A stretch of DNA of 63,688 bases, the filler included. It is 5 parts of 5 records of this genome, joined end to end, with 100 filler letters (N's around TTAATTAATTAA, not from the genome) between each part and the next. Parts side by side here need not be neighbours in the genome. Positions count along the whole stretch, not along the records: positions 20,322 to 35,883 come from SRR20825019_556; 4 more parts are not named here. One strand, 5' to 3'. Of this stretch, positions 8,527 through 32,156 are shown one piece after another. The notes below the pieces were generated by a model that searched no databases, was not told where the DNA came from, and was given only the letters and a program-made list of their open reading frames with translations. Position numbers and translations under genes: made by a program. Position 1 is the stretch's first letter. The number at the start of each line of letters is the position of its first letter.

Positions 8527-8626
8527 NNNNNNNNNNNNNNNNNNNNNNNNNNNNNNNNNNNNNNNNNNNNTTAATTAATTAANNNNNNNNNNNNNNNNNN
8601 NNNNNNNNNNNNNNNNNNNNNNNNNN
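8527..8626. other. artificial contig spacer
   Basis: N44-TTAATTAATTAA-N44, stops in all six frames. Confidence 0.99.
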
Positions 8627-28099: not shown

Positions 28100-29215
28100 A
28101 TGATGATATCTCGCAATACTCTATCCGGGCTGGCGGCCAGCGCTGCAGCCTTTTGTGAAGGTGTGATGGCCGACGACAAGCCCCGGTTTGATATCGGTGC
28201 GGCTTATACGGCGGATTACTGGACCATCGCGCGCGGGGAGGTGCATGACAGCCGCTACCTTGATAACCTTGATCTCACGCTCGGCTGGCAACCTTTGGGC
28301 GAGGACGGCCCCAGCGTTTTCCTCTATGGTCTTTATAATAATGGTACCGGCTTCTCGTCAGAGCTCGCAGGTGATGCCCAGGTGATCAGCAATATCGAGA
28401 CACCGGTGCGGGCAGCCCGGCTGTATGAAGCCTGGGTCGAGCAACCTTTCCTGAAGGGGCGGGGCAGTATCAAGCTCGGGCTTTATGATCTCAATTCGGA
28501 GTTTGATGCGCTGGATAGCGCAGGCCTGTTTATCGCCAGCGCCCACGGCATTGGCACAGACATCAGCCAAACCGGCCAGAATGGCCCGTCGATCTTCCCC
28601 ATCACCTCACTCGCCGCTCGGCTTAGTGTGGATATCCATGATGACATCACCGCGCGTTTTGCTGTGCTGGATGCTGTACCGGGAGATGTGGACCACCCAA
28701 AGCGTACCACCATCAAGCTTGGGGGTGGTGAAGGTGCCCTGATGATCGGAGAGCTGGAATACCGCACAGGTGATGCCAAGTTCCTCCTTGGTCACTGGCG
28801 CTACAGCGCTGACTTTGACGCTCATGACGGCAGCACAGATGGCGGTAACGCGGGCACCTATATCCGCGGGGAGTGGGCTGCGACAGACGACACAACCGTG
28901 TTTGCAAGGCTTGGCCAGGCAGCAGGGCGCTTTAACACCTTCAGCCGCTTCTTTGGTGGTGGCATCAACCACACGGGCATCTGGCAGGAGGCTGACCAGC
29001 TTGGCTTTGCCGTCGCATGGGCGGAATTGTCAGAGGGTTACCAGCAAGGCAACCCCACAGCCAACAGCCGCGAGGTGGCGCTTGAGCTCACCTACAGGGC
29101 TGACCTCACCAACTGGCTCTCTTTCCAGCCTGATATCCAGTATATCATCAACCCGCTGGAAGGCTCCCAAAACGTGCTCGCCATTGGCTTAAGAGCGACG
29201 GCTGAGATAAACTGA
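28100..29215 (+). CDS. OprB-family carbohydrate porin
   Basis: YLDNLDL, RLYEAWVEQ, DLNSEF, GPSIFP, ELTYR, QPDIQYIINP. Confidence 0.88.
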   Translation: MMISRNTLSGLAASAAAFCEGVMADDKPRFDIGAAYTADYWTIARGEVHDSRYLDNLDLTLGWQPLGEDGPSVFLYGLYNNGTGFSSELAGDAQVISNIETPVRAARLYEAWVEQPFLKGRGSIKLGLYDLNSEFDALDSAGLFIASAHGIGTDISQTGQNGPSIFPITSLAARLSVDIHDDITARFAVLDAVPGDVDHPKRTTIKLGGGEGALMIGELEYRTGDAKFLLGHWRYSADFDAHDGSTDGGNAGTYIRGEWAATDDTTVFARLGQAAGRFNTFSRFFGGGINHTGIWQEADQLGFAVAWAELSEGYQQGNPTANSREVALELTYRADLTNWLSFQPDIQYIINPLEGSQNVLAIGLRATAEIN

Positions 29216-29253
29216 AACTGAGGTGATGTAGGCGGATTCTGCCGATTCGATGC

Positions 29254-29277
29254 GGTGTTTTGCCTACATATAACACC
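29254..29277. promoter_or_regulatory. possible second YtrA-type operator
   Basis: GGTGTT-N12-AACACC, same 24-bp geometry as the site at 29386. Confidence 0.45.
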
Positions 29278-29385
29278 CCCGTACAAAAATGCGGTTTTTG
29301 GCGCTAGAAAATAAATCATTTAAAAACAGTACCTTAACTTATTTTTTATGATTTTTATCATCATCAGGCTTGTCAACGGCGATTA

Positions 29386-29409
29386 GGTGTTATACATAAC
29401 TAATACACC
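29386..29409 (+). promoter_or_regulatory. palindromic GntR(YtrA)-type operator overlapping a putative promoter
   Basis: GGTGTTATACATAACTAATACACC palindrome just downstream of TTGTCA (-35-like, 29370). Confidence 0.7.
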
Positions 29410-29780
29410 GGCACGATAAAACGCCCAAACAGACACAAAGCGCCACCCAAGCACGGCGGAATAAGTGAAGAGGGCACAGCGAGGAAACAGCCGGTGACGG
29501 GACACGGTAAAAATACCGGCCCGAGTGACGAGAGCGAGATAAAAATAATACCGCGAGAGACCCGTCACGACAGCGAGGAAGAGAGCAGGGGGCCGGATAA
29601 TAATGGCAAAAGCCGACCGGCCCCCAGGGCTCTCAAGCGAGGACCAGAGTAACAAAGCGAATAAGGCAAAAGCCAACGCTTTATAAAAAACAAACGACAG
29701 CACAAACATGGCGATAAGCCGGGATAACCCGGCAGCCCAAACAAAACAAAAGCCCAATAAAAAGAAGCGAGGAGATAACA
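29410..29780 (+). ncRNA. putative structured U-poor leader RNA
   Basis: about 27 T in 370 nt; several perfect stems; 4x AGCGAGGA; 2x GGCAAAAGCC. Confidence 0.55.
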
Positions 29781-29912
29781 ATGTCAAAACGGTCATATCA
29801 TCATGCAAAACGGTCCCATCGTCGCATTCGCAGGCTTGCCCGCGAAGCGAGCCGTATGGCGCCTCTCGGTGCAGGCCGGGCCGCAGCAACATCAACTGCA
29901 GCTTTTGTTTAA
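29781..29912 (+). CDS. 43-aa Arg/His-rich small protein (not in ORF track)
   Basis: GAGGAG RBS 6 nt before ATG; MSKRSYHHAKRSHRRIRRLAREASRMAPLGAGRAAATSTAAFV; ends 12 nt before gntR. Confidence 0.55.
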   Translation: MSKRSYHHAKRSHRRIRRLAREASRMAPLGAGRAAATSTAAFV

Positions 29913-29924
29913 GGGGAAGAGCAT

Positions 29925-30284
29925 ATGACGCCGGATTGGACGGATGACCAGCCGATCTACCGGCAACTGAAGGACAAGGTAGTTACGGCCATTATGGAAG
30001 GCTCTCTCCGCGAGGGTGAAGCCCTTCCGTCGGTACGTAACGTAGCTGTGGATTTGCAAATAAATCCAATCACTGCCTCAAAAGCCTATCAGGAGCTGGT
30101 AATGGACGGTTTGGTAGAAAAACGACGCGGGCTTGGTATGTTCGTGGTCGATGGCGCACGGGATCGGCTCACAGAAGCCGAGCGTGATCGCTTTCTAAAC
30201 GAAGAATGGCCCCGCGTGCTGGAAACAATCCGCCGCCTTGGGCTCAACACTGAAGAACTGCTGAAAAGCAGCAAGAACCATTAA
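29925..30284 (+). CDS. GntR family (YtrA subfamily) regulator
   Basis: PIYRQL...LPSVR...INPITASKAYQEL...RRGLGMFV; short; followed by ABC genes. Confidence 0.93.
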   Translation: MTPDWTDDQPIYRQLKDKVVTAIMEGSLREGEALPSVRNVAVDLQINPITASKAYQELVMDGLVEKRRGLGMFVVDGARDRLTEAERDRFLNEEWPRVLETIRRLGLNTEELLKSSKNH

Positions 30285-30295
30285 GGGAGGCAGAT

Positions 30296-31171
30296 ATGAC
30301 ACAAGAGAAAAACAACAATCTCGTCGTTGAAGCCAAGGGTCTTGCCAAAAGCTTCGGCAATTTTCATGCCCTCAAGGGCGCAACATTTTCCATCCCGCTT
30401 GGCCGCATTGTGGGCGTTATTGGTGCAAACGGCGCCGGTAAAACCACCATGCTCAACGCGGTTCTTGGCCTTTCATCTTATGATGGGGACCTGAAAGTTC
30501 TCGGGCTTGATCCCTCAAAGGATCGGGACGCGCTGATGAAAGACGTTTGTTTTATTGCAGATGTCGCAACGCTGCCGAAATGGATGAAGGTTGTGGAAGT
30601 GCTGGACTTCGTTGAAGCCGTACATCCGCGGTTTAACCGCGAAAAGGCGATGAATTTCCTCTCCCGCACCAAAGTGCCGCTGGAGCGCAAGGTTCGCGCG
30701 CTTTCAAAAGGTATGACAGTGCAGTTGCACCTGGCTGTTGTTATGGCGATCGACGCCAAGCTGCTGGTGCTGGATGAGCCAACCCTTGGCCTTGATATCA
30801 TCTTCCGTAAACAGTTTTATCAAAGCCTTCTTGAAGAATATTTTGATGAAGACCGCACGGTTATCATCACCACCCACCAGGTGGAAGAGGTGGAGCATAT
30901 CCTCTCTGACGTGATGTTCATCAAGGATGGTGAAATTGTTCTTGAAGCCGATATGGACGAACTTACCCAGCAGTTTATCGAGGTAATGGTCGCGCCCGGC
31001 AAGGAAGAAGAAGCCATGGCACTTGGGCCGATCACAAAAGGATCGACCTTCGGTAAAGCAACGTGCGTCTATAAAAATATTGACCGCGAGAAGCTGGCAA
31101 AACTGGGCGAAACGCGCCGCCTGGGCCTGGCTGATATCTTCGTGGCGACAATGACAGGAGAGGGGCAATGA
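30296..31171 (+). CDS. ABC transporter ATP-binding protein
   Basis: GANGAGKTT, LSKGM, LVLDEPTLGLD, TTH. Confidence 0.95.
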   Translation: MTQEKNNNLVVEAKGLAKSFGNFHALKGATFSIPLGRIVGVIGANGAGKTTMLNAVLGLSSYDGDLKVLGLDPSKDRDALMKDVCFIADVATLPKWMKVVEVLDFVEAVHPRFNREKAMNFLSRTKVPLERKVRALSKGMTVQLHLAVVMAIDAKLLVLDEPTLGLDIIFRKQFYQSLLEEYFDEDRTVIITTHQVEEVEHILSDVMFIKDGEIVLEADMDELTQQFIEVMVAPGKEEEAMALGPITKGSTFGKATCVYKNIDREKLAKLGETRRLGLADIFVATMTGEGQ

Positions 31172-32100
31172 ATACCTTTGTAGCCCTTGTTAAACGCGAG
31201 GTACTGGACGGCAAAAACGGGTATATCCGGGTGCCGGTTATTCTGGCAGGCCTGACTGTGGCGCTTGTTATCCTATCGAGCCTTGGTTTCGGCAACATGC
31301 TGTATTTTGATGGCATGGAGCATGAAGGTATCGAGAATTTGGCTGATGCCATGAACAAGGCGGCGACACGTGAGCCGGAAGAGTTCCCTGCGGCCGTGAC
31401 GATCGGTTACTGGGCCATGAGCATGCTGGCGTGGATTGCGCTGCCGTTCGTGATCTTCTTCTCGCTTCTGGGCGCACTTTATGAAGAGCGTCGTGACCGT
31501 TCGATCCTGTTCTGGAAATCCATGCCGGTTTCTGACTGGGCTGAGGTTCTGGCCAAGTTTTTTGCTCCCATCGTGATCGCGCCCCTGGCCTTTCTCGGGG
31601 TTGCGATTGCCGCGCAGTTGATCATTGCTGTGTTCCTGAGCATTTTGATGGTCTTCCAGGGCGGCCCCGTGCTTGACCTGTGGCCGCTTGGCCTGATGAT
31701 CACCAGCTGGTTTACGGTGATCTCCCACTATCTGATGTGGGCTTTGTGGGCGCTGCCGGTTCTGGCCTGGGTACTGCTGGTTTCGGCTTATGCATCCCGC
31801 ATGCCTTTCCTCTGGGCGATCCTGACACCATTTGTTGCGATCATTGTTGAGGAATTGTTCCTGGATACCCATATGATCGGTCGCTGGTTTGCTATCCACC
31901 TGGGTGGTTGGCAGGACGGTGCGTTCGCGCAAGTGTCAGACAATTTCGATGGCCCGCGTGATGTGTTGATGGCAGTTATGAACGGTATGCAGTGGCACAG
32001 CATAAGCTATAGCCTCACGAGTCCTGCCTTCTGGCTCGGTCTGGTGATTGCAGGCGGGTTGCTCTTCGGAGCGGTAGAGCTTCGCAAGCGCGCTTTCTAA
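31168..32100 (+). CDS. ABC-2 type permease
   Basis: multi-TM; LYEERRDRSILFWKSMPVS motif. Confidence 0.88.
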   Translation: MNTFVALVKREVLDGKNGYIRVPVILAGLTVALVILSSLGFGNMLYFDGMEHEGIENLADAMNKAATREPEEFPAAVTIGYWAMSMLAWIALPFVIFFSLLGALYEERRDRSILFWKSMPVSDWAEVLAKFFAPIVIAPLAFLGVAIAAQLIIAVFLSILMVFQGGPVLDLWPLGLMITSWFTVISHYLMWALWALPVLAWVLLVSAYASRMPFLWAILTPFVAIIVEELFLDTHMIGRWFAIHLGGWQDGAFAQVSDNFDGPRDVLMAVMNGMQWHSISYSLTSPAFWLGLVIAGGLLFGAVELRKRAF

Positions 32101-32125
32101 GCAACGAGCGCTATAAAAGAAAAGC

Positions 32126-32156
32126 ACGGGCTGCCATTTTGGCGGCCCGTTTTTTT
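32126..32156 (+). terminator. intrinsic terminator of the GntR-ABC operon
   Basis: ACGGGCTGCC-loop-GGCGGCCCGT followed by a T run. Confidence 0.8.

Follow-up and report, generated by a model that had tools for sequence, protein, structure and literature searches.

The stretch of DNA analysed here (the window; 63,688 nt, in which five parts of one genome are joined by N runs) contains a gntR–ABC transporter operon preceded by a leader of some 370 nt that is almost devoid of T. Sequence comparison indicates that this leader is probably a multivalent target of, or sponge for, a trans-encoded small RNA (sRNA), made up of antisense-like copies of the 3′ half of that sRNA. The support is comparative and thermodynamic, and computational throughout except for one complementary DNA (cDNA) contig; from it we infer the pairing in the cell, its dependence on Hfq, the direction of regulation and the sponge effect. 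The element in question is:

29410..29780, + strand: T-poor modular leader RNA, defined by composition, fold and the cDNA contig.

The leader contains 7.3 % T, 40.4 % A, 25.1 % C and 27.2 % G, and in a scan of the whole window (63.7 kb) with 371-nt frames the minimum of T was found in the frame beginning at 29405, in agreement with the ca. 7 % T given in a preliminary description of this DNA made from its letters alone. AT skew is 0.6–0.73 throughout 29400–29800, and the remaining low-T frames of the window are G+C-rich stretches, or an N run with a Glu/Arg-rich repeat. All four copies of the motif AGCGAGGA listed in that description were located (29478, 29572, 29636 and 29766), with none outside the leader in the 63,688 bases and a chance expectation of about 0.03 (arithmetic from local composition).

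A search with an extended motif in the nearest relative genome, G001, in which GntR is 100 % identical and the motif spacing equal, identified a second locus carrying ACGACAGCGAGGA (extracted as L031), which contains the following gene:

L031 1161–1275, − strand (G001:C1, about 2800960–2801074): sRNA gene of about 110 nt; two covarying hairpins precede an invariant seed (about 27 nt) and the terminator; homologues in L033–L062.

The locus is intergenic, with an OxyR-like LysR gene (GHCLRD motif) on one side and a TadC-like gene on the other, and oxyR and/or tadC adjoin the sRNA, within 1.5-kb flanks, in most loci of the genus and in several other families. On the minus strand of L031, two hairpins are followed by the single-stranded AUCCUCGCUGUCGUGACUCGGG, the terminator GGCCGGGUAUUUACCCGGCC and U7; the plus strand reads GGCCGGGTAAATACCCGGCCCGAGTCACGACAGCGAGGA. 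The sRNA was detected in 25 of 25 genomes of the genus and in 60 of the 151 genomes sampled from the order. Its seed is identical in the 30 extracted loci save for one G/A position, and the terminator with U6–9 is present in these loci. The consensus fold, obtained from 22 of the 30 loci after leaving out eight near-duplicates, comprises 32 pairs, of which 16 show compensatory changes, together with the terminator and U tract, and the fold of the single sequence gave z = −4.65. Scores against SorY (RF02651) were 33.5 bits in L031 and 28.8–32.8 in four loci (gathering score 111), and against SorX (RF02784) 29.5 bits in L031, and 28.7 and 25.0 in two other lineages (gathering score 46.6). By the Rfam criterion the sRNA is therefore not a member of either family, with sub-threshold SorX/SorY-like matches recurring in four lineages besides L031. 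A text search of the literature for the seed or its complement returned five matches, all of them unrelated primers.

Hfq is encoded in G001 (PF17209, 112.6 bits) and the sRNA ends in a terminator hairpin and U tract, as would be expected of a pair that depends on Hfq. The adjacency to oxyR and the likeness to SorX/SorY are a hint of an oxidative-stress input. Outside Kordiimonadaceae, the spacer before the second hairpin of the sRNA reads CCUCCUC, a second anti-Shine-Dalgarno-like motif. In G016 the seed region has a further 27-nt match (96 %), at G016:C1:356863-356889 (−), and G147 and G057 show two matches apiece; a second copy of the sRNA, or an additional long target site, might explain them.

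The leader repeats, (CCCGAGU)CACGACAGCGAGGA, are the perfect complement of the invariant single-stranded seed. There are six copies, with 8 to 16 nt of perfect and up to about 31 nt of imperfect complementarity, and their predicted duplexes with the seed are as follows:

29476..29485, + strand: site 1, ACAGCGAGGA, 10 nt complementary, −23.4 kcal/mol.
29511..29541, + strand: site 2, AAATACCGGCCCGAGTGACGAGAGCGAGATA, 33 alignment columns, antisense of the terminator arm/loop plus the seed, −34.1 kcal/mol.
29564..29579, + strand: site 3, GTCACGACAGCGAGGA, 16/16 perfect seed complement, −36.9 kcal/mol, the best duplex in the window.
29636..29643, + strand: site 4, AGCGAGGA, 8 nt, −18.2 kcal/mol.
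29694..29701, + strand: site 5, ACGACAGC, 8 nt, −14.8 kcal/mol.
29766..29773, + strand: site 6, AGCGAGGA, 8 nt, −15.2 kcal/mol, which is also the ribosome binding site (RBS) of a small open reading frame (ORF).

When the 24-nt seed was compared with 25,460 frames of 40 nt, taken from the window on both strands, sites 3 and 2, both in the leader, gave the two strongest duplexes, the next one being −28.3 and the 0.1-percentile −27.3 kcal/mol. Local alignment of the leader with the sRNA gave two scores, 42 (site 2) and 32, above those of all 300 shuffles of the leader (best mean 17.8, maximum 28). Runs of at least 8 nt complementary to the seed occur three or more times in 22 of 24 leaders of the genus (L024 has two and L014 has one), against means of 0.12–0.32 and maxima of 2–3 in shuffled genus leaders. 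The leader thus has the extended, above-chance complementarity to a trans-encoded sRNA seed that is expected of a sponge or decoy. The likeness appears to go beyond the seed: the sRNA terminator, read in antisense, resembles both the hairpin at 29718–29733 and the one preceding site 2, and the base content of the leader (U 7 %, A 40 %, G 27 %, C 25 %) mirrors that of the 3′ half of the sRNA (A 10 %, U 36 %, C 30 %, G 24 %). For these two reasons the leader can be read as a series of degenerate copies, in antisense, of the sRNA 3′ half, and the depletion of U would follow from the sRNA being poor in A, with no need for a separate cause.

The motif is not a dispersed repeat, because the 10-mer ACGACAGCGA was no more frequent genome-wide than its reversed control in G001, G016 and G028; besides the leader and the sRNA locus, a search with the pattern CCCGAGNNACGASAG gave just one more exact match. 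The motif CAGCGAGGA occurs 39 times in G001, versus 12 for the reversed control, and 12 of the 36 other sites extracted have a start codon 2–14 nt downstream with an open frame of at least 60 codons, some with 12-nt complementarity. The sRNA thus probably has further targets, the candidates carrying a seed complement at their RBS. Two loci in G001 (L084 and L097, at C1 ~1736430 and ~3261847) contain CGACAGCGAGGAG, with 12 nt complementary to the seed, directly at the RBS of other genes, one of which starts the membrane protein MPKTMTAIDEF...

The RNA from 29405 to 29800 (396 nt) folds with −111 kcal/mol, as compared to −82.7 ± 5.7 for 100 shuffles, none of which equals it (z = −5.0). The main hairpins are:

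29490..29520, + strand: hairpin GCCGGU...ACCGGC with an A-rich loop, its 3′ arm running into site 2 (sequence; CUGGU/ACCAG variant in L003).
29580..29633, + strand: central hairpin GAGAGC-GGGGGCCGG ... CCGGCCCCC-GCTCTC, with apical GGCAAAAGCC (fold, compensatory changes).
29654..29682, + strand: hairpin AAAGCG...CGCTTT, with apical GGCAAAAGCC (fold).
29718..29733, + strand: hairpin GCCGGG-AUAA-CCCGGC, the one resembling the antisense of the sRNA terminator hairpin (score 17, alone within the shuffle range).

The stems of the preliminary description all exist: the pair GTGACGGG/CCCGTCAC is present at 29494/29561, imperfect 17-nt arms pair 29580–29596 with 29617–29633, the minimum-energy fold contains AAAGCG/CGCTTT and GCCGGG-ATAA-CCCGGC, and the apical GGCAAAAGCC was found twice (29605 and 29665). 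However, GTGACG is present twice, and the stem that covaries among relatives is GCCGGU (29490–29495)/ACCGGC (29515–29520), and not necessarily GTGACGGG/CCCGTCAC. In the genus alignment, the central hairpin has eight consensus pairs, four of them with compensatory changes and with G-U pairs workable on the + strand only; several hairpin stems likewise vary with compensatory changes. The minimum-energy fold leaves sites 1, 4, 5 and 6 unpaired, as well as most of site 3, and places the GGA motifs of the four AGCGAGGA copies in linkers between hairpins, not in hairpin loops. We propose a model in which the leader consists of about five hairpin-plus-linker modules, exposing the sRNA-complementary copies in single-stranded linkers. 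A search of 28800–30400 against Rfam found no family reaching its gathering score, as had been supposed; the best match near the leader was MicL (20.8 bits versus a gathering score of 56), and corresponds only to a terminator-like hairpin within the small ORF.

When orthologous upstream regions were collected, a check proposed in the preliminary description, a T-poor leader with repeated GCGAGGA, at about −400, −310 and −160, was found in 23 of 24 loci of the genus. The genus alignment conserves a TTGTCA promoter element, the palindrome GGTGTTATACATAACTAATACACC, a near-invariant block extending to ...CCCAAACAG, the repeated single-stranded motif and the small ORF. T-poor leaders with multiple sites recur in several genera: Kordiimonas, Pseudokordiimonas, Yunchengibacter and Eilatimonas. 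Over 76 loci, the T fraction drops as the number of sites (at least 8 nt) climbs (Spearman −0.72, with related genomes non-independent):

Loci with at least 3 sites: n = 37, median T fraction 0.11, median leader 479 nt.
Loci with 1–2 sites: n = 14, median T fraction 0.16, median leader 291 nt.
Loci with 0 sites: n = 25, median T fraction 0.19, median leader 282 nt.

The 25 site-less loci include those of Xanthomonadales, except for chance CCCGGCCC(G) matches in L172 and L180, and those of a group of metagenome-assembled genomes with short leaders. Detection of the sRNA by family was 38/38 in f1, 9/9 in f2, 10/12 in f4 and 2/2 in f6; in the sample of 151 genomes, families f3, f5, f7, f9 and f10 yielded no match, and f8 a terminator-like one only. 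Sites and sRNA occur together: outside the genus, the leaders of sRNA-bearing genomes have sites of at least 8 nt in five of six cases (G026, G028, G035, G037 and G038; G030 has a split match only), and those of the sRNA-less genomes G029, G033, G040 and G041 keep the operator in 4/4 and have sites in 0/4. Lineages with a single site carry it in one of two positions, either over codons 2–6 of the small ORF (ATGGTCACGACAGCGAGGA in Iodidimonas, with like sites in L150, L158 and L174) or ending about 20 nt 5′ of its ATG (L151, L159 and L165). From such positions, sRNAs are known to block initiation of translation.

The leader is transcribed on the + strand. Run X1 contains a 416-nt contig (depth 70.8) that spans 29366–29751 and has two loose ends, 5′ GTATCAACGCAGAGTACATGGG and 3′ A8. 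We take GTATCAACGCAGAGTACATGGG to be the tail (3′ part) of the SMART template-switch oligo; this adaptor indicates that the contig is cDNA and that the RNA corresponds to the + strand. The 3′ A tail may be due to oligo-dT priming or to polyadenylation. A second X1 contig covers 29759–29926 (depth 3.5), run X2 contributed a single low-depth contig (29415–29623), and runs X15 and X5 had no contig on the leader stretch; these comparisons were made on assembled contigs, with the orientation taken from the adaptor-bearing X1 contig only. The X1 contig contradicts the possibility, raised in the preliminary description, that this region is not transcribed.

Some observations weigh against a multivalent sRNA target. 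Energies exceed the window background at only two of the six sites, sites 4–6 (−18 to −15 kcal/mol) being individually at chance level, and the local-alignment scores of 20 to 16 are individually within the shuffle range. The invariance of the seed leaves no covariation in trans between seed and site, and the co-occurrence of sRNA and sites rests on few independent lineages. Moreover, the sRNA gene was seen in the near relative G001 (GntR 100 % identical, 28 % shared 31-mers) and not in the window, where a 19-nt seed pattern with up to three mismatches matched site 3 alone, so that the window holds no copy of the gene. As for transcription, the 20-fold higher depth of the leader contig relative to that of the small ORF is confounded by oligo-dT priming in the A-rich tract and is therefore not usable as a sign of a discrete leader or sponge RNA. 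Lastly, the cDNA 5′ end at 29366 is upstream of the genus-conserved promoter and operator, which leaves the promoter assignment unsettled; two promoters may be in use, or the RNA may have been processed at 29366.

The best surviving alternative, which we nevertheless regard as unlikely, is that only the site at the RBS of the small ORF is functional, the upstream modules being debris of target-site duplication or of antisense insertions of the sRNA gene, with no sponge or cooperative role. Consistent with this, families other than Kordiimonadaceae manage with one or two sites near the start of the small ORF, several of the upstream sites are short and energetically unremarkable, and the leader modules resemble degenerate copies of one unit. 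However, the strongest sites are upstream ones, fixed at about −400 and −310 in spite of the diverged, indel-rich sequence between them, the sites remain in unpaired linkers in the predicted fold, and the multi-site T-poor leaders recur in the four genera named above.

Less probable again is a protein-binding platform in which the role of the GGA or A-rich motifs is to sequester a CsrA-like protein, Hfq (as CrcZ does) or the product of the small ORF, acting as a lambda-N-type arginine-rich motif. The repeated GGA, the 40 % A with many AAN-type runs, the G+C stems with A-rich loops, the presence of Hfq and the adjoining peptide with an RRxRRLAR core would all fit such a platform, and the preliminary description had interpreted the GGA repeats as CsrA/RsmA targets. 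That interpretation fails: CsrA (PF02599) was not found in G001, the nearest relative genome (100 % complete), by a search that did match the controls from E. coli, B. subtilis and T. maritima, and the GGA motifs are predicted in linkers instead of loops. In addition, the conserved unit is not GGA alone, but 13–21 nt that match the sRNA seed exactly, and a model of protein sites would not predict this; the A-rich runs are presumably no more than the composition gives; the micropeptide has no family match and nothing ties it to RNA; and Hfq binding is compatible with pairing to the sRNA rather than a rival of it. What stands of the multi-site regulatory leader, described beforehand as a sponge or translation-control platform, is that it is transcribed, structured, modular and multi-site; its partner is probably an RNA and not a protein of the CsrA/RsmA kind, and the idea survives with an RNA partner because the motif is the exact complement of an sRNA seed.

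A self-contained cis-acting leader, such as a riboswitch, attenuator or Rho-dependent element with an incidental likeness to the sRNA, would account for its length, structure and conservation, and long leaders are often sites of premature termination. We consider this very unlikely, since there is no match in Rfam and no + strand intrinsic terminator inside the leader, C and G are balanced, unlike in a C-rich, G-poor Rho-loading site, and the most conserved elements coincide exactly with the seed complements. The least credible alternative is a functional minus strand, with an array of sRNA paralogues (each module reads there as seed-like sequence, hairpin and U-rich sequence, with several lenient terminator-like sites) or a 170-aa open frame (29383..29895), since the cDNA contig derives from + strand RNA, the G-U pairs of the central hairpin suit the + strand only and hairpins on the minus strand lack a proper U tract behind them. 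That 170-aa frame was rejected as a gene: among relatives the stop-free frames range from 73 to 169 codons, with 35–45 % identity where GntR is 92–96 % identical, and L002 (GntR 98 %) has no match. The frame is a compositional artefact, given that an A-poor strand is expected to yield stop-free frames.

The small ORF served by site 6 is:

29781..29912, + strand: 43-aa Arg-rich ORF (MSKRSYHHAKRSHRRIRRLAREA...), an ORF call whose stop lies 12 nt 5′ of the gntR ATG.

As the preliminary description had it, the last AGCGAGGA is the RBS of this ORF, 7 nt from its ATG, and the ORF is conserved in the genus, where (C)AGCGAGGAG is kept ahead of the ATG. Its start, RRxRRLAR core and non-polar C-terminus are conserved across the genus, with a variable middle, and the micropeptide also occurs in other families; no match to it was found in Pfam, NCBIfam or Atlas. 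An Arg-rich small ORF was detected in 38 of 80 loci, and one more match (L180) looks spurious; detection used a crude regular expression (RR, 0–2 residues, RR, in an ATG ORF of 25–80 aa), which misses true cases such as L143. The C-termini are almost always small and non-polar (LAA, FAA, AAA, TFA, ATA, AFV), resembling, we assume, C-terminal degradation tags, and this suggests by analogy that the micropeptide is short-lived. In L144 (Eilatimonas milleporae), with a leader of 716 nt, the ORF is present in two tandem copies before gntR, each preceded by a GACAGCGA-type site. Other plus-strand ORFs within the leader (e.g., one of 52 aa at 29494) were discarded as unconserved, the alignment being full of indels that are not multiples of three, and ORF picking within leaders gave differing K/R-rich frames from species to species.

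The leader and micropeptide belong to an operon with the following features:

29334..29361, + strand: promoter-like TTAACT-16-TATCAT, found by scan; the cDNA 5′ end at 29366 is 5 nt downstream; poorly conserved in relatives.
29370..29398, + strand: promoter-like TTGTCA-17-TACATA, from sequence, with a predicted start near 29405; TTGTCA/TTGCCA and the downstream block are conserved in the genus.
29386..29409, no strand assigned: imperfect palindrome GGTGTTATACATAACTAATACACC, the presumed YtrA-type operator, from sequence comparison.
29925..30284, + strand: GntR-family regulator, 119 aa, with a short C-terminal part, YtrA-like (PF00392, E 1.5e-12, residues 12–74).
30296..31171, + strand: ABC transporter ATPase (PF00005, E 5.5e-19).
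31168..32100, + strand: 310-aa hydrophobic protein, the presumed permease partner (ORF call).
32126..32150, + strand: strong terminator-like hairpin with a T run, the operon end (terminator scan).

The gene upstream of the operon encodes an OprB-type porin and ends at 29215, with weak terminator-like hairpins after it. Members of the YtrA subfamily are defined by an N-terminal GntR winged helix to which only a short C-terminal part is attached, by ABC genes alongside and by a palindromic operator. As far as sequence can tell, the operon has all these traits, with the palindrome at its own promoter, and the YtrA-type gntR–ABC assignment made beforehand thus finds support in PF00392, the downstream ABC ATPase and a GTGT-N12-16-ACAC element that lies 5′ of gntR in Kordiimonas through to Stenotrophomonas (76 of 80 loci). 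The top NCBIfam matches were PmtR for GntR (60 bits, under the cut-off of 200) and PmtA for the ATPase (141 bits, under the cut-off of 350); no Pfam or NCBIfam family matched the 310-aa protein. Operon and operator range from Kordiimonadales to Xanthomonadales. In the latter (L171–L184; Stenotrophomonas, Dokdonella and Pseudoxanthomonas), homologues of gntR (about 61 % identity) lie behind an operator of the same type (GTGTTATAGTT...ACAACAC) and some 300 nt of spacer, with neither the Arg-rich ORF nor sRNA sites. Elsewhere in the window, positions 8527–8626 hold TTAATTAATTAA between two N runs, apparently an artificial contig linker, indicating that the scaffold was concatenated there; directly after it comes a GAGCGT-repeat stretch that encodes Glu/Arg-rich sequence.

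Taking the leader as a multivalent target of the sRNA, we propose that the four-gene operon mRNA (micropeptide, YtrA-like GntR, ABC ATPase and membrane protein) would be the ancestral primary target of the sRNA, which would pair with the leader probably with the help of Hfq. The ancestral site would be the RBS and first codons of the micropeptide, where pairing would block its translation, and translational coupling could extend the repression to gntR and the ABC genes. The site would have been amplified upstream in Kordiimonas and close relatives, giving rise to a multivalent leader transcript. The amplified sites might act as a threshold or cooperative device for repression and, the two uses not being exclusive, as a sponge that titrates the sRNA from other targets once the GntR repressor permits transcription; the depletion of U may also keep the A-rich linkers unpaired. 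More speculatively, and with less than even odds in our judgement, the leader might be a dedicated multivalent sponge, built by repeated copying of the antisense of the sRNA 3′ half (seed, terminator arm and loop) into the 5′ untranslated region (UTR) of the target. On release of the repressor it would soak up several copies of the OxyR-linked sRNA and couple the exporter/envelope operon to the sRNA regulon in a switch-like manner, with the short-lived micropeptide as an RNA- or regulator-binding cofactor.

Known bacterial sRNA sponges and decoys are mostly single-site and came to light in a few model species, by interactome experiments. Here a leader with six putative sites for one sRNA, kept in a marine alphaproteobacterial family, was recognised by simple sequence comparison, and its near-absence of U is a compositional signature that could serve to locate similar traps elsewhere. 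The analysis also defines a previously uncatalogued sRNA with an invariant seed and a clear candidate primary target, and a conserved gene for an Arg-rich micropeptide, which automatic annotation would tend to overlook. Together they offer a testable case of cross-talk between an operon controlled by a transcription factor and an sRNA regulon.

The operon resembles those of YtrA-subfamily GntR regulators with ABC exporters, such as PmtR-PmtABCD, in its short GntR, the palindrome at its own promoter and the ABC genes downstream, but its matches to that system are far below the equivalog cut-offs, and to our knowledge the described YtrA-type and Pmt systems have neither a micropeptide cistron nor an sRNA-pairing leader. 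CsrB/RsmZ and CrcZ are RNAs of several hundred nucleotides with repeated hairpin/linker modules, whose short motifs titrate proteins (CsrA; Hfq/Crc). The leader is similar to them as a modular RNA in which a repeated short motif would titrate a regulator; in CsrB/RsmZ, however, the ligand is a protein, whereas the unit repeated here matches an RNA seed and the genome of the nearest relative yielded no CsrA.

Among RNA partners, SorX and SorY are stress-induced sRNAs of Rhodobacter sphaeroides, and SorY, with Hfq, is described as pairing with a transporter mRNA at −44 to −7 (PMC4615379). The sRNA of this work has the same layout, as far as that report describes, with a 5′ hairpin first, CCUC-CUGU-G-GAC as single-stranded seed and, last, a G+C terminator and U tract (PMC4615379), but it remains below both gathering scores, belongs to another host order, adjoins oxyR and tadC and has a different seed sequence. 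In the StsR-UpsM-dcw system, also of R. sphaeroides, the main partner of a stress-induced trans sRNA is a long 5′ UTR, together with its derived RNA, which makes another alphaproteobacterial leader–sRNA pair; pairing there triggers RNase E cleavage at one site, and the available part of the report describes no repeated sites or compositional bias (PMC8266604). SroC is an RNA that originates from the mRNA of an ABC-transporter operon and sequesters the Hfq-dependent sRNA GcvB, producing cross-talk between mRNAs; it derives from inside the operon transcript and not from a leader, and multivalency on the present scale does not figure in the portion of the source consulted (PMC4474525).

A further functional parallel is given by the sponges derived from 5′ UTRs in E. 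coli, ChiZ-ChiX-chiP and IspZ-OxyS, the latter acting on an oxidative-stress sRNA, in which an mRNA leader holding a pairing site for a trans sRNA can sequester that sRNA and create a reciprocal loop; according to the sections available, each of these RNAs has one pairing region in fragments of 60–90 nt made by termination (PMC7815308). Unlike them, the leader described here extends for about 370–390 nt, has six sites and an extreme depletion of U, and seems to mimic the antisense of the sRNA terminator hairpin. Compared with known sponges, it would thus differ in the number of its sites, in its compositional signature and in a predicted mimicry of the sRNA that goes beyond the seed.

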